Positions 55,871 to 63,253 of a stretch of 64,000 bases of DNA are shown piece after piece. Position 1 is the stretch's first letter, and the number at the start of each line of letters is the position of its first letter. The translations under genes were made by a program, and so were the position numbers. The notes below the pieces were generated by a model, which saw only the letters and a program-made list of their open reading frames with translations, searched no databases and was not told the origin of the DNA. Source of the stretch: Candidatus Kerfeldbacteria bacterium (lineage in GTDB: Bacteria > Patescibacteriota > Patescibacteriia > UBA9570); NCBI GenBank assembly GCA_016182495.1, contig JACPGK010000022.1, positions 11,092 through 75,091 on the forward strand, read 5' to 3'.

Positions 55871-56719
55871 CTATGATAGTGGACTTTTTATGTTTTTAAG
55901 CTTTGGATTTGTAACATGGGTATACTGTTGGGTGGTTCTAATATTCTGATGGCCAAGCAACTCTTGAACATAACGAATATCAACACCGTTTTCTAATAAG
56001 TGAGTAGCAAAGCTATGTCTTAAGCTATGAAAGGTGGCATTTTTTTGGATCCCAGATTTTTTTAAAGAATTTTCAAAAATTTTTTGAGCACTTCTCGTTG
56101 TTAAGTTTCCGCCCCGCTCACTTGCAAAGATAAAATCATCATGATTTTTTCCGCTGCACAAATTTTTAAGATCAGCTACCAATTTTTCTGGCAATATACT
56201 CATTCTATCTTTTTGCCCCTTAGCTTGTTTGATATGAATGGTTAGTTCAGCAAGATCAATATCTTTTACCTTTAGTGCAACCACTTCACTCACTCTAAGT
56301 CCTGCGCCATAAGAAAGTGACAATAAAATTTTGTGTTTTGTATTTTTGGTTGTCTCTAAAATTTTTTCAATTTCTATTCTTGATAATACTATAGGCAAAC
56401 TTTTTGGTTTTTTAGCAGATTGGATATCAATTTTTTGGTTATTTTTCACTACATCTCGATAATAAAACTTAATTGCATTTAGAAATAAATTTCTGCTTTG
56501 CGCAGAGGTATTCTTTTGTTTGCACTCTAATAAAAAGTCTTTGATATTATCTGGCTGTACTATTTCAAAGTTTTGTTTTTTAAAGCAAAAGTATTTTTGT
56601 AAGCCATAAAGGTACATTTTTACAGTTTTTGGACTATAATTTCTGATGTTCAGTTCTCGTTCAGTTCTCGTTCAGTTCTCGTTCAGTTCTCGTTCAGTTC
56701 GATTTAGTTGTTTTTGCAT
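55871..56719 (-). CDS. tyrosine recombinase (integron-like), N-terminus interrupted by tandem repeat with an in-frame TGA
   Basis: RNYSPKT, LPIVLS, YGAGLRVSE, KGQKDR, HSLRHSFATHLLE, LLGH, TTQQYTH; ATG 56719 in frame with ORF 55871-56617. Confidence 0.9.
56648..56700. repeat. 11-bp tandem repeat (GTTCAGTTCTC) x4.8
   Basis: Four full copies plus 9 bp, read directly. Confidence 0.97.
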
Positions 56720-56814: not shown

Positions 56815-56841
56815 TTTTATTCGTATAATAACTAGTTGTGC
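56815..56841 (+). other. putative attI-like site
   Basis: TTTTATTCGTATAATAACTA-GTTGTGC upstream of the divergent recombinase; first cassette starts at G|TT 56835. Confidence 0.55.
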
Positions 56842-56859
56842 AAAATCGCTCCGCTCTTT

Positions 56860-56989
56860 GCACAACGCCTCGCGGTTCCCGCTGTTGCACTCGTCGCTCC
56901 GCGACATCGCACAACAGCGGCTAGACTCCATGTCGATCTGAACACTGCGTGTTCATCTTGCCACGGCGCCTAGCCGCGAGGCGTTAGGC
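56860..56989 (+). repeat. attC-like site 1 (gene-less cassette)
   Basis: GCACAAC GCCTCGCGG ... CCGCGAGGC GTTAGGC. Confidence 0.85.
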
Positions 56990-57125
56990 GACATATTTTT
57001 GAAAATTTGTTTTTAAAAGAGGGTGATTATAAAGTGTTTTCTTCACTTCGTTACGAAAACTATTTAAATATTAGCGGAAATTTTTATATAATGATTACAA
57101 CTTTTAATTTATAAAGAGAAAAAAT

Positions 57126-57578
57126 ATGAAAGAGAAATTTTATGAAAAATATGCTTGGGTAATTTTTCTTGTTATCGGTCTTATGGTTTTAGTAGGGGGA
57201 ATGCCCCATATGTTAGGGGTTAATACAGACCCAGCTTTAGTTGAAACCATTAGCGGACAAACAATAGATGAACTTAAATCATCAAGTCCGATGTTCTTTG
57301 ACTTATATAATTTTTATTTTAGTGGGGGAGGTTTGTCTGATGTGGGGGTTGCTTTTTTCCTGTTAGTCATTTCCATATTTGCCTATAGAACAGGTCAAAA
57401 ATGGGCTTGGTATGCTTTTTGGTTTGTCCCGGTTTACTTTTTATTTTGGATAGCCCTCAGTTCAGCCCTGCCATCCGCATCACAATCGTTGCTACTTTCG
57501 CCATTAATAGTGATTATAGTTTTAAGTCTCGCGGGATTACTCTTGCCTTTTAGAAAGTTTTTTCCAAAAAAACAATAG
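57126..57578 (+). CDS. cassette-borne 4-TM membrane protein
   Basis: Four hydrophobic segments, KWAWY. Confidence 0.75.
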   Translation: MKEKFYEKYAWVIFLVIGLMVLVGGMPHMLGVNTDPALVETISGQTIDELKSSSPMFFDLYNFYFSGGGLSDVGVAFFLLVISIFAYRTGQKWAWYAFWFVPVYFLFWIALSSALPSASQSLLLSPLIVIIVLSLAGLLLPFRKFFPKKQ

Positions 57579-57807
57579 ATTCGATCCAATCGCAGGAGAG
57601 ATTATCTAATATTAACCTCAAATTATGCGTTACTAAAAAAAATCAAATTACCAAAAAATTTTATAACAAATAATTTATAATTAAAAGAGATACTACCATG
57701 AAAAACATAAATAAAAAACCCACAAAAAACGAAAATAATATGGATAAATTTTTCAAAAATACGCAAGGCACGTTGCACTCTCACTCCGCTATCGCTCCGT
57801 TCGGCTC

Positions 57808-57905
57808 GCCTAACACAGTATATGCGATTCGCTCGTTGCACTTCGCTCTCCCATATTTTTCTCCGTTTCACTCCGCAAAACATCGCATATACTGAAACGT
57901 TGTGT
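57808..57905 (+). repeat. attC-like site 2
   Basis: GCCTAAC A CAGTATATGCGAT ... ATCGCATATACTG AAAC GTTGTGT. Confidence 0.85.
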
Positions 57906-57923
57906 AAAATCGCTCCGCTCTTT

Positions 57924-58053
57924 GCACAACGCCTCGCGGTTCCCGCTGTTGCACTCGTCGCTGCGCGACATCGCACAACAGCGGCTAGACTCCATGTCGA
58001 TCTGAACACTGCGTGTTCATCTCGCCACGGCGCCTAGCCGCGAGGCGTTATAT
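57924..58053 (+). repeat. attC-like site 3 (second copy of the gene-less cassette)
   Basis: Near-identical to site 1; ends GTTATAT. Confidence 0.85.
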
Positions 58054-58069
58054 GCCATTAGCAAAAAAA

Positions 58070-58573
58070 ATGAAGCATCCGGTACCAAATCAACATCTAA
58101 TCCATATCGGTGACGTCGTCGTCTCTTTTGCACTATTAGAACTAGCGATCCAAAGTCTAATAGGATCATTAATATTCGAACATCAAAGGGTAGGCCAAAT
58201 TATCACAGCGGAACTTTCATTTAAAAATCTACGCGCACTTGCAATTAGTCTTTACCTTGATAGGCATGGTGAAGATAGCGACTATTCAAAATTGAAACCA
58301 TTGATGAACGAGGCTGGCAAAATTGAGGAGACACGAAACAATATAATTCACTCCATTTGGGCCGCAGGCAAGGATAAAGACCATATCACCAGAATCAAAA
58401 CAACCGCAAAAGAGAAAAAAGGGTTAGCATTTTGCTTTGAAGAATTATCAGTAAGCGACTTAGAAAGTTTCGCTGGGAAAATACAGCAATGTGCTGGAAG
58501 TGTTCAAAGTTTCAATTTTGAATTAATTAAGACCAAGAAGGCTATTAATAATCCTATTCTGAAGTTGTGGTAG
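58070..58573 (+). CDS. cassette hypothetical protein (HEPN-like RxxxxH motif)
   Basis: ETRNNIIHSIW matches R-x4-H; IG..VV.F..LE N-terminus. Confidence 0.65.
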   Translation: MKHPVPNQHLIHIGDVVVSFALLELAIQSLIGSLIFEHQRVGQIITAELSFKNLRALAISLYLDRHGEDSDYSKLKPLMNEAGKIEETRNNIIHSIWAAGKDKDHITRIKTTAKEKKGLAFCFEELSVSDLESFAGKIQQCAGSVQSFNFELIKTKKAINNPILKLW

Positions 58574-58697
58574 TTTTTTTGCTAACAGCATATAACAGCG
58601 TGTATACAGCTTGTTCACTTCCTGCGTGCGTTCACTCGCCCAAATTTGACTTATTTTTTATTTAGTGATAAATTAGAAGCATAAAATTACTAAACAT

Positions 58698-58919
58698 ATG
58701 CGCAAAATAGACCTCAAATCAGTGGTATGGAAAGAGGGTGATTATTACGTCTCCCAATCTTTAGATGTTGATGTTTCCAGTTTTGGCAAAACAAAAAAAG
58801 AGGCCCTGACAATGCTGCAAGATGCTTTGGCGTTATACTTTGAAGATGTTCCACTACCAATAAAGACAGAGCGTGTGAAAGAACCGTCTATTGCTTCGGT
58901 TACTCTGCAGCATGCCTAA
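58698..58919 (+). CDS. hicB: HicB-family antitoxin
   Basis: VWKEGDYYV, SSFGKTKKEAL..LQDALALYFE. Confidence 0.85.
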   Translation: MRKIDLKSVVWKEGDYYVSQSLDVDVSSFGKTKKEALTMLQDALALYFEDVPLPIKTERVKEPSIASVTLQHA

Positions 58920-59127
58920 ACCATATCCACTTCGACTTGTCATTAAAGTCCTTGAAAACAAGGGCTTCTTTTTTGTTTCTCAAACTGGCTCACACGCCAA
59001 ATATCGCAAAGCAGGGATTCAAACACTGACCGCCATTGTGCCAATTCATGGTAAAGAAATCCGTTATGGTACTTTTCGGTCTATTTTGCGACAAACAAAA
59101 TTAAAAGAGGAGGATTTTCAAGATTAA
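58912..59127 (+). CDS. hicA: HicA-family toxin
   Basis: QTGSHAKY, VPIHG, GTFRSILRQ. Confidence 0.88.
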   Translation: MPKPYPLRLVIKVLENKGFFFVSQTGSHAKYRKAGIQTLTAIVPIHGKEIRYGTFRSILRQTKLKEEDFQD

Positions 59128-59152
59128 AAAAATAAGTCAAACTTTGCATACA

Positions 59153-59214
59153 CCATGTCGATCTGAACACTGCGTGTTCATCTTGCCACGGCGCCTAGCC
59201 GCGAGGCGTTAGGC
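59153..59214 (+). repeat. 3' half of the site-1-type attC (hybrid site 4, left arm at 58590)
   Basis: Matches 56928-56989; left arm ATATAAC 58590-58596. Confidence 0.8.
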
Positions 59215-59281
59215 GAAATAATTCTTGAAAATTCCCTATTGAAATGAAATTTTTATTTCCCTTTCCAAAAATTAAGTCCTT

Positions 59282-60196
59282 ATGATGAAAATAGAAAAAG
59301 AAATTGCCGAACGTATCTACAATTACGAAAATCCAAAAAAAATTGCTCTTTCCAGAAAATATCCATTTCTAAAAAAGCCAATTATTTTTTTGCGTCATTT
59401 ATTTCGAGATATACAAAATTTTTTTGATTTTAGGATTAAATATGAAAGAAAAAATGATTTTTTCGACTGTATTATAGCAAGGCATCAATCAGTATTAAGA
59501 CGCAAGCTCGGAGATAGTAATCCAAAGCTACAAGAACAAAAGATTGTTAATCTTAAACAAGCTATTCAACGATTAAATGGCATAGTTATACAACCAAATC
59601 ATGTCTTTTCGCTTTGGAATATTATCGGTAAGCCAAAATATGAAAACGGATATGTTGATGGAATGCTACTGTCAAACGGCAAAGTTGTAGAGGGAATCGG
59701 TGGCGGACTTTGCCAATTATCCAATTTTCTTTACTGGATTTTTCTACATGCCCCAATTGAGACGACTGAGAGGTATCATCACTCTATGGATGTTTTTCCG
59801 GATTCTGGCAGAACTTTGCCGTTTGGCGGAGGAGCAACAATTTTATACAATTTCATTGATCTAAAAGTAAAAAACATATCAATATATCCGTTTCAGTTAA
59901 AAATATGGCTTACCGATAATCATTTGAAGGGTCAAATACTATCTCCTCGCCCCATAGCACAAAAATTTCATATTTTTGAAAAAAATCATTTTTTCGTTAA
60001 AAGAGGTAAAAAATATTTTCGATATAATGAAATTTACAAAGAAACTAAAATTGGTGGGAAAGTAGAAAAAATCGAAAAAATTACCACAAATTTTGCACCA
60101 GCGCTTTACAAGGTGACAGATGAATATCTGCAAAAAAATAATTTTAGGATTTTGGATTTTACGAACAGGGAAATAAAAATTTTAAATAAGGAATGA
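59282..60196 (+). CDS. VanW-like protein
   Basis: FSLW..IG, GIGGGLCQLSN, ERYHHS, DLKVKN. Confidence 0.85.
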   Translation: MMKIEKEIAERIYNYENPKKIALSRKYPFLKKPIIFLRHLFRDIQNFFDFRIKYERKNDFFDCIIARHQSVLRRKLGDSNPKLQEQKIVNLKQAIQRLNGIVIQPNHVFSLWNIIGKPKYENGYVDGMLLSNGKVVEGIGGGLCQLSNFLYWIFLHAPIETTERYHHSMDVFPDSGRTLPFGGGATILYNFIDLKVKNISIYPFQLKIWLTDNHLKGQILSPRPIAQKFHIFEKNHFFVKRGKKYFRYNEIYKETKIGGKVEKIEKITTNFAPALYKVTDEYLQKNNFRILDFTNREIKILNKE

Positions 60197-60207
60197 ATTT
60201 TCAAGAA

Positions 60208-60242
60208 TTACAACGCCTCGCGGTTCCCGCGAGGCGTTAGCT
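60208..60242 (+). repeat. minimal 35-bp attC-like hairpin (site 5)
   Basis: TTACAAC GCCTCGCGG TTC CCGCGAGGC GTTAGCT. Confidence 0.8.
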
Positions 60243-60259
60243 GAAATTCATTTCAAAAT

Positions 60260-60730
60260 ATGAACATAAATAAACATCTCAAAAATCTATCTCCTTATGG
60301 CATGGGCAAGAAAGATTTTGAAATAGAAAAAAATGAACTTGAAAAAAAATTTGGCCAACAGCCAACTGATCAAGATGTGTTGTATTCACTTTTTAATAAA
60401 CTAGTTGTTCAAACAAGTGATTTTCAAGATTTAAAATCTATTTATTATTCAATGGCACTTTTTTTAAATGAAGAAGGACATGACAGTCTAAATGCTAATA
60501 GATCAAGCGCAAAAATGGGACTAGCAGCGTTAAAAAATTTTGGAGTAAAAAAAGTAGAAATTCTTGTTAATTCAGGTTGTGAAGAATGTCAGAAATTAGC
60601 AGGCCAAATTTTTGACATAGATAAAGCAATGACTGATTTGCCCATACCAAACCAGGCGTGCAAATACGATTTGAATAATAATGATAAGCCACTTTGCCGA
60701 TGTGAATATTTACCTGTTATTGATGATTGA
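60260..60730 (+). CDS. cassette hypothetical protein with C-terminal Cys motif
   Basis: GCEEC...LPIP..C...CRCEY. Confidence 0.7.
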   Translation: MNINKHLKNLSPYGMGKKDFEIEKNELEKKFGQQPTDQDVLYSLFNKLVVQTSDFQDLKSIYYSMALFLNEEGHDSLNANRSSAKMGLAALKNFGVKKVEILVNSGCEECQKLAGQIFDIDKAMTDLPIPNQACKYDLNNNDKPLCRCEYLPVIDD

Positions 60731-60740
60731 AATGAACTTC

Positions 60741-61209
60741 ACCTAACACGGGCTAGTCGCTTCGCTCACTAATTTTTTTTCAATGCAACAAAAAATTGAA
60801 TTGCAAGAATTTTCCATCAAACTAACAAATTTATATCCCCGGCTCAGAATTTGGACAGACGGTCGAGTATATGAAATTAAAGAGTTAGTTGGACAAAAAA
60901 ATAGTCTCAAATTTTACATTTATCCTGAAGACCATAATCCACCCCATTTTCATGTTATTAGCCAAAATGGTGACGTAGACGTCAGTTTTAAGATTGAAGA
61001 TGGAAAATTCTTACGAGGAAAGGCTAAACGAAAATTTGACCTAAAGAAAATTCAATATTTTTATGATCAATACAGGCCAGAGTTACAAAGTAAATGGAAT
61101 GCATTTCAAAAAAATTAGTTCGTTCACTCAAATTGCTTCCTGTCGGCTGTGATGATAAGATCATATTACAGCCACAGTCAGCAACTTCGGCTAGCCTGAA
61201 ACGTTAGCT
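60741..61209 (+). repeat. attC-like site 6 enclosing a gene
   Basis: ACCTAAC A CGGGCTAGTCG ... CGGCTAGCCTG AAAC GTTAGCT, same grammar as site 2. Confidence 0.7.
60783..61118 (+). CDS. DUF4160-like protein
   Basis: YIYPEDHNPPHFHV, L..KW end. Confidence 0.75.
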   Translation: MQQKIELQEFSIKLTNLYPRLRIWTDGRVYEIKELVGQKNSLKFYIYPEDHNPPHFHVISQNGDVDVSFKIEDGKFLRGKAKRKFDLKKIQYFYDQYRPELQSKWNAFQKN

Positions 61210-61359
61210 GAAATATTCCTTTTCTTTTTTGGGCTTCGCCCGAGTGTTTACAAAAATTATCAAATTTCTTTCCCTCTCATCATTAAGTAGGGGAAATTTC
61301 AGTATTAATTTAATTGAATTGACATTACGTTTCATATCTGATACACTATTGTCATAATT

Positions 61360-61977
61360 ATGAAAAGCAGGAAAAACCTTTTAGAACAACTTAAAAACTT
61401 ACCTTATTTCAGTAAAAGTACTGTGTATCAGCTTGGGACACAGTTAGGGCTCAAGAATACCTCGGTTGATACTTATATCAGTCGCTTCTTGAAATCCAAA
61501 GAAATTTTCCAGTTAAAAAGGGCTTTATACGTATCCTCAGATTTCTATAACAGAAATAAGGATGATATTTCCTGTTCGTTTTATCTTGCCAATGTTATTC
61601 GTACTCCATCATATGTAAGTTCATGGGCGGCACTTCAGTACTATAATCTCACAACGGAAGCTATTCATTCTGTAACCTCGGTAACGCCCAAGGTTACAAG
61701 ACAGTACCAGACAAAGGCTGGAAACTTTGCCTATCAGTCCATCAAGAAGGAGTTATTTTCAGGATTCTCATTGGTTAAGGGTAGATTTGATTTCTTCATC
61801 GCTTCACCCTCAAAGGCACTATTTGATCTCCTGTATTTCAAGACTCGACAACTTCGTAGCATGAGTCAGGAAAACATTAATATGCTGATAGAGGAACTAA
61901 GAGTAGATATTAATGAGATGGAAACCCAGGAGCGAGAAAAGTTTTATACCATGATTAATAAACACGTTCATGAGTGA
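61360..61977 (+). CDS. AbiEi-like type IV TA antitoxin
   Basis: N-terminal wHTH (LKRALY), SYVSSWAALQYY, IASPSKALFDLLY. Confidence 0.8.
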   Translation: MKSRKNLLEQLKNLPYFSKSTVYQLGTQLGLKNTSVDTYISRFLKSKEIFQLKRALYVSSDFYNRNKDDISCSFYLANVIRTPSYVSSWAALQYYNLTTEAIHSVTSVTPKVTRQYQTKAGNFAYQSIKKELFSGFSLVKGRFDFFIASPSKALFDLLYFKTRQLRSMSQENINMLIEELRVDINEMETQEREKFYTMINKHVHE

Positions 61978-63253
61978 ACAAATATTAATTATTCTTAAAA
62001 GAGAGCTTGATGAGCTCTCTCTGTATGGCGATCTTGATGCCGAAACCCGTAGAAACAAGCTTAAAGAGGCTTTGCAGTATTACATTCTCAATTTCATTTA
62101 TCACCATCCTGAATATAGCAAATGGGTGATGTATGGAGGTTCGGCACTTCGAATCATTCACGGTCTTGATCGAATGTCAGTGGATCTGGATTTTGAAGTA
62201 TCACACACTGTAACAGGAATCTTTTTAGAGGAGCTAAAAAAGGAACTTGAGGATCACTATAAAAATACGTATGGGGTGGGTTCTAATTTCCTGACAATAA
62301 AAATAACGACAGGCAGAGGACTCCTTCTAAAATTCCATGTTGGCGAAGCATTAGGTTTTGGCCACACTTCCAATCAAGTTCATGTAAAAATAGACCTCAA
62401 CCATTTCGTCGCTCCTAAAACTGTTACTGAGCGTCGGCCGATGAACCGTGATCAGCTTTCTTTTGTTATTTCGACCTACAATATGTCTGCTTTGATGGCA
62501 AGTAAGATAGCCGCCATTTTTTTGCGTGGGACTCGCGGTGTGGGTGAAGCTGTGTACAAGGAAAAGGGACGGGATATTTACGACCTTCTTTGGTATATGA
62601 ATAAAAAAGTGGTTCCTGATATTGATTATCTTGTTGCCAAAGGTATTGATGTAAACGATCCACGGGCGATTTTTGACAAGCTCACACTGCAGATGAATAA
62701 AGTGAGCGATGAAAATCTCAAGCAGGACCTTATGCCGCTTTTTACAAATCGCATATACGTTGAGAACTGGCTTCAGAATTGGCGAGAAAGCTATCTGCGA
62801 CTGCTTGATGATTACAAAATACGCACTGTTACAGAAATAGAGCATATCAGAGTGCACCACGACTTAATGCCAGATAATTTCTATTTCATTTATACCTATA
62901 AAACAGAAGATAGCGGGTTTGTTCGCGTTATGTATTCGATGAGCGATTACTGGATTGATTTTAACGAAGGTAATTTGCCAACCAAAGAAAGCGAGAAAAT
63001 AAAAGATAAGGTTGAATTTACAAGCAATGGAGCGACAAGTCATCCGCCGTCTGAAGATAAATTGAGACAGTATGCCACGCTTTTTTATCAGAAGACGGAA
63101 GATTATTTCAAGAAAACTAACCGAATCATGTTCGGTGATACGATCACAACAAAGCTTATACGCATGACGTCAGATAAACTAAATCCAAAAGAGCAGATCG
63201 TGCTTAATAAGTCGGCATTACTCTCTTGTGAGCTTGATGATTTATTGAAATGA
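61970..63253 (+). CDS. AbiEii-like nucleotidyltransferase toxin with C-terminal extension
   Basis: GGSALR, RMSVDLDF, KIAA, KGRDIYDL. Confidence 0.88.
   Translation: MSEQILIILKRELDELSLYGDLDAETRRNKLKEALQYYILNFIYHHPEYSKWVMYGGSALRIIHGLDRMSVDLDFEVSHTVTGIFLEELKKELEDHYKNTYGVGSNFLTIKITTGRGLLLKFHVGEALGFGHTSNQVHVKIDLNHFVAPKTVTERRPMNRDQLSFVISTYNMSALMASKIAAIFLRGTRGVGEAVYKEKGRDIYDLLWYMNKKVVPDIDYLVAKGIDVNDPRAIFDKLTLQMNKVSDENLKQDLMPLFTNRIYVENWLQNWRESYLRLLDDYKIRTVTEIEHIRVHHDLMPDNFYFIYTYKTEDSGFVRVMYSMSDYWIDFNEGNLPTKESEKIKDKVEFTSNGATSHPPSEDKLRQYATLFYQKTEDYFKKTNRIMFGDTITTKLIRMTSDKLNPKEQIVLNKSALLSCELDDLLK

Follow-up and report, generated by a model that had tools for sequence, protein, structure and literature searches.

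Two cassette-end sites in the integron-like array of a Candidatus Kerfeldbacteria bacterium appear to enclose complete gene units

In the genome of an ultra-small groundwater bacterium of the candidate phyla radiation, two cassette-end sites of an integron-like array appear to each enclose a complete, clamp-closed gene unit; the sites are predicted to remain foldable as single-stranded DNA, and the cargo would move only with the host cassette; we assign this reading a probability of about 65%. Within the window analyzed (the whole 64,000-nt stretch), these are site 4, which carries a hicBA pair, and site 6, which carries a DUF4160 gene. As the first-pass annotation had claimed, both units lie inside sites. 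They are placed between the R''/L'' and L'/R' arms, where the site family has its variable hairpins, and neither hicBA nor the DUF4160 gene is divided from its upstream neighbour (ORF167 and ORF156, respectively) by an intact site of its own. Both nested arrangements are also present on independent contigs of public runs, and an assembly artefact is therefore rejected.

The array runs on the plus strand from position 56834 and is composed of small, co-oriented, mostly promoterless genes, with cassette ends of the form GTTRRRY/RYYYAAC and terminal inverted repeats of 20–75 nt beyond the core. It is adjoined, in divergent orientation, by the gene of a Xer/IntI-like tyrosine recombinase (55871..56617, minus strand; 248 a.a from the ATG, open frame of 266), which matches the Pfam family Phage_integrase with 152 bits. 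Against the integron integrase model TIGR02249, the recombinase scored 204.4 bits, under the cut-off of 265, in two stretches (residues 2–153 to profile positions 22–176, then the profile from about 255), and against the XerA model 202.9 bits, below the cut-off of 220. Among PDB structures, XerA (4a8e, 3.8e-41) aligned in one stretch and IntI4 (2a3v, 4.9e-40) in two. The additional domain specific to IntI is absent from the recombinase in the comparisons with both the TIGR02249 profile and 2a3v, and single-strand attC chemistry is thus an assumption here. Homologues of the recombinase (E up to 1e-40) occur in 158 of 401 genomes of the class, often at contig ends, including, by a reading of two result tables side by side, 29 of the 41 genomes with attC-like sites.

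The first unit of the array is a gene-less cassette (GTTGTGCAAA..TTTGCACAAC) with a "full" three-way-junction site (56834..56985, plus strand; second copy at 57900-58049), formed by an outer stem (AACGCCTCGCGG/CCGCGAGGCGTT), hairpin A, and hairpin B. The same design adjoins the recombinase in genome G207, where the outer stem covaries, and the exact outer-stem pattern of the window's site was found in the window's own genome only (0 of 60 relatives). The short attC-type site 2 (57810..57906, plus strand), which ends the ORF150 cassette, reads GCCTAAC A CAGTATATGCGAT ... ATCGCATATACTG AAAC GTTGTGT, and belongs to a conserved attC-like family with the order R''(AAC)-L''-V1-CCCAWATT-V2-AACWTCGC-L'-spacer-R'(GTT). 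A search of the 401 class genomes with the pattern AACAGCGTGTAT-N10-130-ATACACGC returned 53 sites of 38–134 nt in 41 genomes, and its backwards control 0 matches. The variable parts of these short sites are the positions at which hicBA (after CCCAAATT) and the DUF4160 gene (after the L'' box) are found in the window. The cores (GCCTAAC..GTTGTGT, ACCTAAC..GTTAGCT, etc.) are imperfect palindromes of the RYYYAAC / GTTRRRY type, the canonical pair GCCTAAC/GTTAGGC among them, and spacers of 0–2 nt on the left with 3–5 nt on the right were seen in 38 sites, against 0–3 sites in the controls.

Could such structured, GC-rich repeats be REP-like or regulatory elements rather than recombination sites? 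No Rfam family was matched (a single sub-threshold match was seen). Against this stand the GCCTAAC/GTTAGGC core pairs and the one-sided spacer asymmetry. In many genomes, moreover, such arrays adjoin a tyrosine recombinase gene; contigs break at the sites, which also have many alternative neighbours; and one cassette occurs in a second context, its break falling at GTT (described below). We therefore rejected this explanation, which we consider very unlikely.

Site 6 (470 nt) looks intact. It follows the gene compartment of ORF156 (60237..60748; ORF 60260-60730), which is bounded by a 21-nt terminal inverted repeat, with all features of the site on the plus strand. The left arm (60742..60767) comprises R'' ACCTAAC (60742-60748) and L'' GGGCTAGTCG (60750-60759), and leads directly into the DUF4160 unit in V1 (60768..61119), whose clamps (60768-60787 / 61100-61119) contain the start and stop codons of the ORF (60783-61118). 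The right part (61120..61211) continues with TCGTTCACTCAAATT, a V2 hairpin (61130-61187), L' CGGCTAGCCT (61188-61197), TGAAAC, and R' GTTAGCT (61205-61211). Site 6 thereby shares the arm grammar of site 2 (CCTAACAC... on the left, ...TGAAACGTT on the right), and a perfect 12-bp inverted repeat brackets the gene (60768-60779 / 61108-61119), both in agreement with the first-pass annotation. The repeat extends to 20 nt at 90%, and its perfect 12 bp were reached by 3 of 1000 shuffles. In the unconstrained fold, the arms of site 6 formed 18 arm-to-arm pairs on the top strand and 16 on the bottom strand.

The enclosed gene matches PF13711 (50.4 bits, cut-off 23), while its score against the DhiT model NF048015 (37.4) is under the cut-off of 100. 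A partner (antitoxin) gene is absent inside the unit, leaving a lone toxin-like gene, and the protein has no PDB match by sequence. Relatives amount to one chance-like 19-residue match in the genome contigs and one 36% match in the 401 class genomes, such that the comparative data for this cargo consist of the public runs and the L094 locus. Site 6 with its cargo was seen in contigs of three further studies (X6, and partially X8 and X9), where an 813-nt contig from X6 covers 60418-61206 with 22 differences. At L094, the ORF156 cassette lies behind a different site and neighbour, with likeness beginning at GTTAG; after the cassette come the left arm and then the DUF4160 unit, of which the locus shows no more than the first 27 nt. 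This is the one case in which a cassette has changed place with a break at G|TT, and it is also the one direct case bearing on the earlier claim that the nested genes travel with the cassette, for those first 27 nt of the unit.

Site 4 (625 nt, plus strand) carries hicBA in V2 of the site belonging to the ORF167 cassette. The gene compartment of this cassette (58048..58596; ORF 58070-58573, start uncertain) is bounded by a 23-nt terminal inverted repeat (GTTATATGCC.. / ..GCATATAAC), and the left arm (58590..58641), homologous to the AACAGCGTGTAT..CCCAAATT family, comprises R'' ATATAAC (58590-58596), L'' GCGTGTAT (58598-58605), the V1 region, and the CGCCCAAATT motif. The unit itself is flanked by a left clamp (AAATTTGACTTATTTTTT, 58642..58659), conserved in homologous modules, and a right clamp (AAAAAATAAGTCAAACTT, 59127..59144). 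Between them lie hicA (58909-59127; PF07927, 57.1 bits, cut-off 27) and, overlapping it from upstream, a gene for a 73-a.a protein (58698-58919), the sole family match of which is DUF7387 (28.2 bits against a cut-off of 27.9). This protein had no NCBIfam match and no PDB match by sequence; we have assigned it by position as the putative HicB-type antitoxin, and the pair is kept in six aligned modules. The perfect 15-bp inverted repeat that had been reported around hicBA is present (58645-58659 / 59127-59141) and extends to 18 nt at 94% (58642-58659 / 59127-59144), and 0 of 1000 dinucleotide shuffles of 58590-59212 gave 15 bp with a loop of at least 250. A 469-bp site had been mentioned; the enclosed loop of site 4 measures 467 nt (58660-59126), not 469. 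The left clamp overlaps a promoter-like TTGACT-17-TAAATT (58646-58674), which scores 9 of 12 and by itself does not exceed shuffles, and a TTGAC-N17-TATAAT-like leader is conserved in hicBA homologues.

The right end of site 4 (59145..59214) is a hybrid, in which an L' remnant (ATACAC, 59148-59153) is followed by hairpin B and by the "full"-type closure CCGCGAGGC GTTAGGC (R' 59208-59214); intact relatives end in ..CAGATACACGCGGACGTT. We found no R''/L'' partner between the hicA stop and 59208, and no locally pairing site between the ORF167 stop and the hicB start, save a weak 8-bp hairpin that is not conserved in relatives. Most likely, site 4 lost about 100 nt, comprising its own L' end, its R', and the left part of the "full" site that followed. 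Both GTGTAT (58600-58605) and ATACAC (59148-59153), proposed earlier as a pair, are in place, yet they remain unpaired in the unconstrained single-strand fold. Folding of single strands, the check suggested by the first-pass annotation, thus came out differently for the two sites, with the arms of site 6 pairing on both strands and those of site 4 giving 0 pairs on either. Given the truncated L', the borrowed right end, and the unpaired arms, this copy is probably not active. With the loss of about 100 nt, ORF167 and hicBA have probably become fixed where they are, and their unit would now be removable only via homologous recombination between hairpin-B repeats.

Homologous gene-bearing sites were sought with an arm finder in 21 arrays (170 kb). 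The census returned 38 sites, 27 of them ≤170 nt, none of 171–300 nt, and 11 of >300 nt with an ORF, whereas reversed or shuffled controls gave 0–3 sites in all and 0 short ones. Full arm grammar together with one ORF (87–163 a.a) was present in 10 of the 11 long sites. In the relatives, we noted 10 clear gene-bearing sites (329–741 nt) in 5 of 20 arrays; two of the nested ORFs (n = 10) are Trypco2 and eight have no family above cut-off, and the clamps around different cargo genes are unrelated in sequence. In unconstrained full-length folds, the arms paired in 19 of 20 strand folds of the 10 long sites of relatives, a statistic that is partly circular, as the long sites and the units bounded by terminal inverted repeats were found via complementarity. 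A looser finder, the controls of which gave 4–6 long matches, produced four long matches without arm grammar (L049 3556, L050 11118, L052 11460, and L058 495) and one cross-pair, all dropped as likely due to chance.

These figures bear on the notion that hicBA and the DUF4160 gene were once ordinary cassettes, fused to their upstream neighbours through decay of the intervening sites. While the right end of site 4 does show decay, two matched deletions would be needed per case, the arms flanking the cargo are complementary to each other, both in the 10 long sites and where hicBA is enclosed, and the cargo is always at V1 or V2, with bimodal lengths and none of 171–300 nt. Cassette fusion is disfavoured on these grounds, and we regard it as very unlikely. 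The same census qualifies the claim that nested genes are of toxin-antitoxin type. Here they are hicA with its putative antitoxin gene and the lone toxin-like DUF4160 gene, and most of the cargo of relatives is not toxin-antitoxin; the view of the cargo as a stabiliser is thus only partly supported.

Nesting of hicBA recurs in other genomes. Homologues of hicA are present in 50 of the 401 class genomes, and among 29 loci examined the finder placed an enclosing site with arm grammar at three (L097, L118, and L122); by eye, hicBA is also nested in L098, L106 (left arm cut by the contig start), and L112 (in V1), giving nested hicBA homologues in at least 4–6 other genomes. The L boxes of these sites differ (GCGTGTATCTG, GTGTGTATCTG, CGGCACATCTG, AAGAATAAAAG, and GGGATAAGCG), and each of the five matches its own partner across a loop of about 470 nt; these pairs were read directly from the loci and left out of the pair count, because the MAFFT alignment placed the left arms of L122 and L106 wrongly. 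Across the six aligned modules, 94.3% of cells in the clamp and inner stems are paired (slid controls 39–57%) and five pairs have changed on both sides, with a covariation score that none of 500 shuffles attained, in a test on six sequences with the structure taken from one of them.

Such conservation might instead reflect a role of the clamps and inner stems in RNA, with long-range 5'-3' pairing that controls translation or stability of each gene, and the position in the site being incidental. In one inner stem, the region around the hicB start codon pairs with sequence from the 3' portion of hicA, with three compensatory pairs, and the codon placement within the DUF4160 clamps fits this idea. 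However, the predicted -35 box falls within the left clamp of hicBA, which hence lies upstream of the module's own transcript, and the L''/L' pairing across the cargo belongs to the recombination site and not to the gene; we consider a role in RNA unlikely.

How the cargo arrived is a separate matter, and here the clamp-flanked units may be mobile modules in their own right, inserting into the variable hairpins of attC-type sites and passing from one such hairpin to another, with nesting the product of target choice rather than a design of the site. This would be compatible with enclosed units that now move with their host cassettes. HicBA modules with the same clamp, which holds the predicted TTGACT promoter element, turn up next to unrelated passenger genes and within sites that have five different L boxes; they occupy V2, or in one instance V1, and some stand free and lack a right clamp. 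Arm type does not track HicA likeness (L097, the closest at 86%, has other arms, and L118, at 62%, has ours). In addition, a V1 hairpin in G207, G057, and G265 (ATTTGAC-N24-GTCAAAT) resembles an empty clamp. On the other hand, the module borders show no target-site duplication or common end motif, the clamps of different cargo genes have no sequence kinship, and a search of the 96%-complete genome for a reverse transcriptase (PF00078), an IS110-family transposase (PF01548), and a Y1 transposase (PF01797) found none of the three. Nor was a well-supported joint removing a module alone found in runs X1–X4 and further runs, the contigs of which drop rare variants. The joints 58659-59127 (X6, side of 21) and 60765-61181 (X6 and X8, side of 24) were not counted as empty sites, owing to short sides and unknown letters between. 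Taken together, independent mobility of the units is possible but doubtful. We are similarly tentative about a further suggestion, that the variable hairpins are loading slots into which clamp-flanked modules are inserted or exchanged by a loop-directed mechanism, making the site a multi-compartment cargo carrier.

Under the main reading, clamp and arms would zip a loop of 350–470 nt shut, bringing the R and L boxes together for the recombinase to act on. By analogy with the proposal for Vibrio toxin-antitoxin cassettes, the cell would pay for losing a cassette whose loop holds hicBA with its putative promoter. The public-run contigs (X1–X4 and others) showed no gene-bearing site that had recombined, and the only well-supported joint (56927 to 59153, run X4, 64 shared letters) is explained equally well by homologous recombination. 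According to PMC5027507, classical sites recombine less from double-stranded DNA when their variable terminal structure is longer.

Should the long sites be active, their hairpins would tolerate loops of 350–700 nt given a clamp, which bears on the folding of single-stranded sites in the cell, in a system whose recombinase is without the domain regarded as the hallmark of integron integrases. A toxin-antitoxin pair that the integrase cannot separate from its passenger gene would be a new means of rendering a cassette addictive. Slots of this kind may bear on the origin of the link between genes and attC sites; the loading-slot suggestion, if true, would add a second layer of gene mobility nested in the integron and a possible route for the birth of cassettes. 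Integron tools and concepts assume a short, non-coding attC of 57–141 bp, and searches are limited to around 200 nt; sites that carry genes therefore escape them, and cassette boundaries are drawn wrongly in such genomes.

Nesting would likely tie such genes to their cassette, and classical integron sites are not known to do this; in the literature searched, with subscription journals outside its coverage, we found no publication that describes an integron-like array in Patescibacteria or an attC site with genes inside it. Extra coding DNA inside attC is seen with group IIC-attC introns and IS1111-attC elements, which bring their own reverse transcriptase or transposase, whereas the units described here encode cargo only, in a genome that yielded no such enzyme. 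Small gene modules, often toxin-antitoxin, are likewise flanked by Xer-type recombinase sites in the dif modules of Acinetobacter plasmids; each dif site is a short double-stranded stretch of 28 bp, and orientations alternate, unlike the long folded palindromes with AAC/GTT cores seen here. With classical and sedentary chromosomal integrons, including the long, branched attC sites of Vibrio (VCRs), the array shares the divergent recombinase, the single direction of its small, mostly promoterless genes, and a variable terminal structure that differs between sites, as well as imperfect palindromes, RYYYAAC / GTTRRRY cores, unequal spacers, and G|TT bounds (PMC5027507). It departs from them in the recombinase without the IntI-specific insertion, in the 20–75 nt terminal inverted repeats at cassette ends, and in sites of 329–741 nt with whole genes in variable hairpins, against attC lengths of 57–141 bp reported in PMC5027507. 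In Vibrio chromosomal integrons, toxin-antitoxin cassettes are proposed to act through "cassette loss killing", and PMC13108822 states that all such systems described had their own attC site. The array here resembles these in its putative type II pair, with a candidate promoter, the loss of which would be costly; in contrast to the Vibrio cassettes, hicBA here has no site of its own and is nested in the site that ends a different gene's cassette.

The host genome (38 contigs, 1.3 Mb, 96% complete), in which a search found none of the known attC-targeting enzymes encoded, carries in the last 8 kb of the window a row of small co-oriented genes that begins next to an opposite-strand tyrosine recombinase of 248 aa (55871–56617). 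GC-rich palindromic sites with classical integron cores at their ends (GCCTAAC … GTTGTGT in site 2, 57810–57906; ACCTAAC … GTTAGCT in site 6, 60742–61211) stand between these genes. The recombinase scored 204 bits against the integron-integrase model (cut-off 265) in two matching stretches, skipping the IntI-specific insertion, and is equally close to archaeal XerA (4a8e, one stretch) and Vibrio IntI4 (2a3v, two stretches). Homologues (E up to 1e-40) were identified in 158 of 401 class genomes, where the contig very often ends on the array side. The stretch that separates the first site from the recombinase start contains an 11-nt unit (GTTCAGTTCTC) five times in tandem (56648–56702); similar GTTCAC-like words reappear within the sites, and these repeats are possible accessory binding sites. 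The first element after the recombinase, both here and in G207 (a complete genome from another family), is a gene-less cassette (GTTGTG, 13 nt, CACAAC) followed by a three-way-junction site (56834–56985, with a second copy at 57900–58049; 1487–1660 in locus L057). Hairpin A of the latter is near-identical between the two families and the outer stem covaries (GCCTCGCGG/CCGCGAGGC vs. GGCCGGCGG/CCGCCGGCC); this combination is a candidate attI-like platform.

The G207 array adjoining its recombinase follows the same site grammar, and a pattern derived from its sites (AACAGCGTGTAT-N10-130-ATACACGC) retrieved 53 sites of 38–134 nt in 41 of the 401 genomes, compared to none in the backwards control. 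The family consensus is R''(AAC)-A-L''-V1-(T)CAC(C)CCAWATT-V2-AACWTCGC-L'-GRAC-R'(GTT), where R'' and L'' are left-arm boxes, L' and R' right-arm boxes, and V1 and V2 hairpins free in sequence and length. It is at these variable hairpins that whole genes are found. In site 4 (58590–59214), the left arm is of the family type (ATATAAC A GCGTGTAT ... CGCCCAAATT), the hicBA pair starts exactly where V2 does, and AAACTTTGCATACAC, the opening of the family right arm, follows the right arm of the inverted repeat (clamp) closing the pair. Site 6 shares its arms with site 2, as the first-pass annotation had proposed, and with a second arm type (ACGGGCTAGCCGG ... CGGCTAGCCCGAAACGTT); its DUF4160 gene lies at V1, after which the site runs through TCGTTCACTCAAATT and a V2 hairpin of ordinary kind (45 nt) to L' and R'. 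Both clamps were exactly as annotated: a perfect 15-bp inverted repeat (58645–58659/59127–59141; reached by 0 of 1000 shuffles) around a DUF7387 gene and hicA (HicA, 57 bits), and a perfect 12-bp repeat (60768–60779/61108–61119; 3 of 1000) around the DUF4160 gene (50 bits). Both nested arrangements also occur in public groundwater-run contigs. No second complete site intervenes on either side of hicBA (from ORF167 to hicB, or from hicA to the next R') or of DUF4160 (from ORF156 to this gene, or from it to the next R'), and thus no separate intact att site divides these genes, in agreement with the proposed nesting.

The predicted folds bear out the hairpin for only one of the two sites. In unconstrained single-strand folds, site 6 is predicted to pair arm to arm (18 and 16 pairs on the two strands) and then clamp to clamp, whereas site 4 gave 0 arm-to-arm pairs on either strand. 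The L' box of site 4 breaks off after ATACAC and continues as hairpin B plus CCGCGAGGCGTT of the three-way-junction ('full') site type, which is present at 56925–56985 and 57989–58049, while homologous hicBA-bearing sites end in ...CAGATACACGCGGACGTT (L118) and ...CAGATATACGCGAACGTT (L098). The simplest history would be a deletion of ~100 nt that took the end of site 4 together with the left portion of a gene-less cassette and 'full' site that came next, an arrangement still present after site 2. In metagenome run X4, one contig (depth 4.3) connects 56927 with 59153 across the 64 nt of hairpin B that both places share and so lacks ORF150, the gene-less cassette, ORF167, and hicBA as one block; other X4 contigs retain them, and array variants therefore coexist in this run. 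This joint is equally compatible with site-specific and homologous recombination.

Gene-bearing sites recur in related arrays. For 20 recombinase loci, the sequence on the array side was retrieved (170 kb with our own array) and scanned for AACA, ACGTT, and at least nine of the next bases pairing. This returned 38 sites (27 of ≤170 nt, none of 171–300 nt, and 11 of >300 nt), a conservative count given that sites 4 and 6 themselves escape the finder; the reversed and three shuffled versions gave 3, 1, 0, and 1 matches, none short. The full grammar was present in ten long sites of 329–741 nt (three each in L047 and L052, two in L050, and one each in L051 and L060), each with one ORF (87–163 aa) at V1 or V2 enclosed by its own clamp and a regular gene preceding it in the same cassette. 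Arm pairing is predicted in 19 of the 20 full-length strand folds of these sites. Two nested ORFs encode Trypco2 proteins and eight have no family above the cut-off; the cargo is therefore not typically toxin–antitoxin.

HicA homologues were found in 50 of the 401 genomes. Among 29 hicA loci read, L097, L118, and L122 have the module inside a site with arm grammar according to the finder, and inspection by eye added L098 (two mismatches), L106 (left arm cut by the contig start; R' = AAT), and L112 (with the module at V1 and GCT as R'). Finder matches at L110 and L117 were discounted as they lack the arm grammar, and the remaining loci are without the right clamp. The clamp (AAATTTGACTTATTTT/AAAATAAGTCAAACTT) is kept together with the module and includes a promoter-like TTGACT-17-TAAATT, which would place its left arm upstream of the module's own transcript, a position that favours a clamp formed in DNA over one formed in RNA. 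In an alignment of six modules, the clamp and two inner stems were 94.3% paired (slid controls, 39–57%), with five pairs changed on both sides and a covariation score reached by 0 of 500 shuffles, in a test limited to six sequences and a structure derived from one of them. One inner stem (58700–58712/59078–59090) joins the region around the hicB start codon to the 3' portion of hicA, shows compensatory changes in 3 of 13 pairs among the six modules, and could be an mRNA control element. The L boxes flanking hicBA vary among genomes, each still matching its own partner. The upstream passenger genes vary and arm type does not track HicA likeness, which suggests that clamp-flanked units may be mobile modules exchanged between site hairpins. 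In L057 (2080–2130), a V1 hairpin (ATTTGAC-N24-GTCAAAT) in sites of 128–130 nt, likewise seen in G057 and G265, looks like an emptied hicBA clamp.

That cargo travels with its cassette was borne out in part. In metagenome contig L094, the ORF156 cassette stands behind a different site (…CGCATACGCTGGAACGTTAGGTGAAATTC…), with likeness to the window beginning at GTTAG; the contig stops after the same left arm and only 27 nt into the DUF4160 unit. Site 6 with its cargo occurs in runs of three other studies (97–99% likeness), and no useful DUF4160 relatives were found in the class. In such metagenomes, a 38-nt cassette leader (CTGAAACGTTAGCTGAAATATTCC..., 61198–61235) is high-copy (summed depth 128–731 vs. 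5–20 alongside), is flanked on either side by a wide variety of neighbours, and has a second copy in contig C1 outside the window (about window-equivalent 65981). The site 2 arms (57727–57887) reach depths of 193–1271 in runs of three other studies.

Elsewhere in the array, the entire VanW cassette (59200–60229), coding sequence included, is predicted to fold as one giant quasi-palindrome (single-strand MFE −161 vs. −102 ± 4 in shuffles, z −14.6), its helices concentric about 59715–59770 and including a perfect 15-bp pair (59621–59635/59906–59920). The VanW CDS by itself (59285–60150) gave z −8.65, seven control stretches +2.1 to −4.2, and relatives' TIR-bounded cassettes, a sample selected by its repeats, −1.5 to −7.3. 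An AbiEi-like/AbiEii pair (61360–63253) lies between perfect 21-nt inverted repeats (61251–61271/63260–63280), beyond which the array continues to the contig end with two further short sites.

We found no published account of such integron-like arrays in Patescibacteria, Parcubacteria, or the candidate phyla radiation, nor of genes located within attC sites, in the literature on these or on toxin–antitoxin systems with attC; one aquifer paper, in its accessible text, only counts IntegronFinder integrons. The recombinase would act on these sites as folded single strands, with the clamp rendering the long loop harmless. Classical attC sites are given as 57–141 bp, with longer terminal structures reducing recombination from double-stranded DNA (both from the accessible text of PMC5027507), and hence the activity of the long sites cannot be assumed. 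Nested hicBA may punish loss of its cassette in the manner of the 'cassette loss killing' of Vibrio integrons; however, according to the accessible text of PMC13108822, every toxin–antitoxin system described there has its own attC, whereas hicBA here is nested in the site of another gene's cassette.
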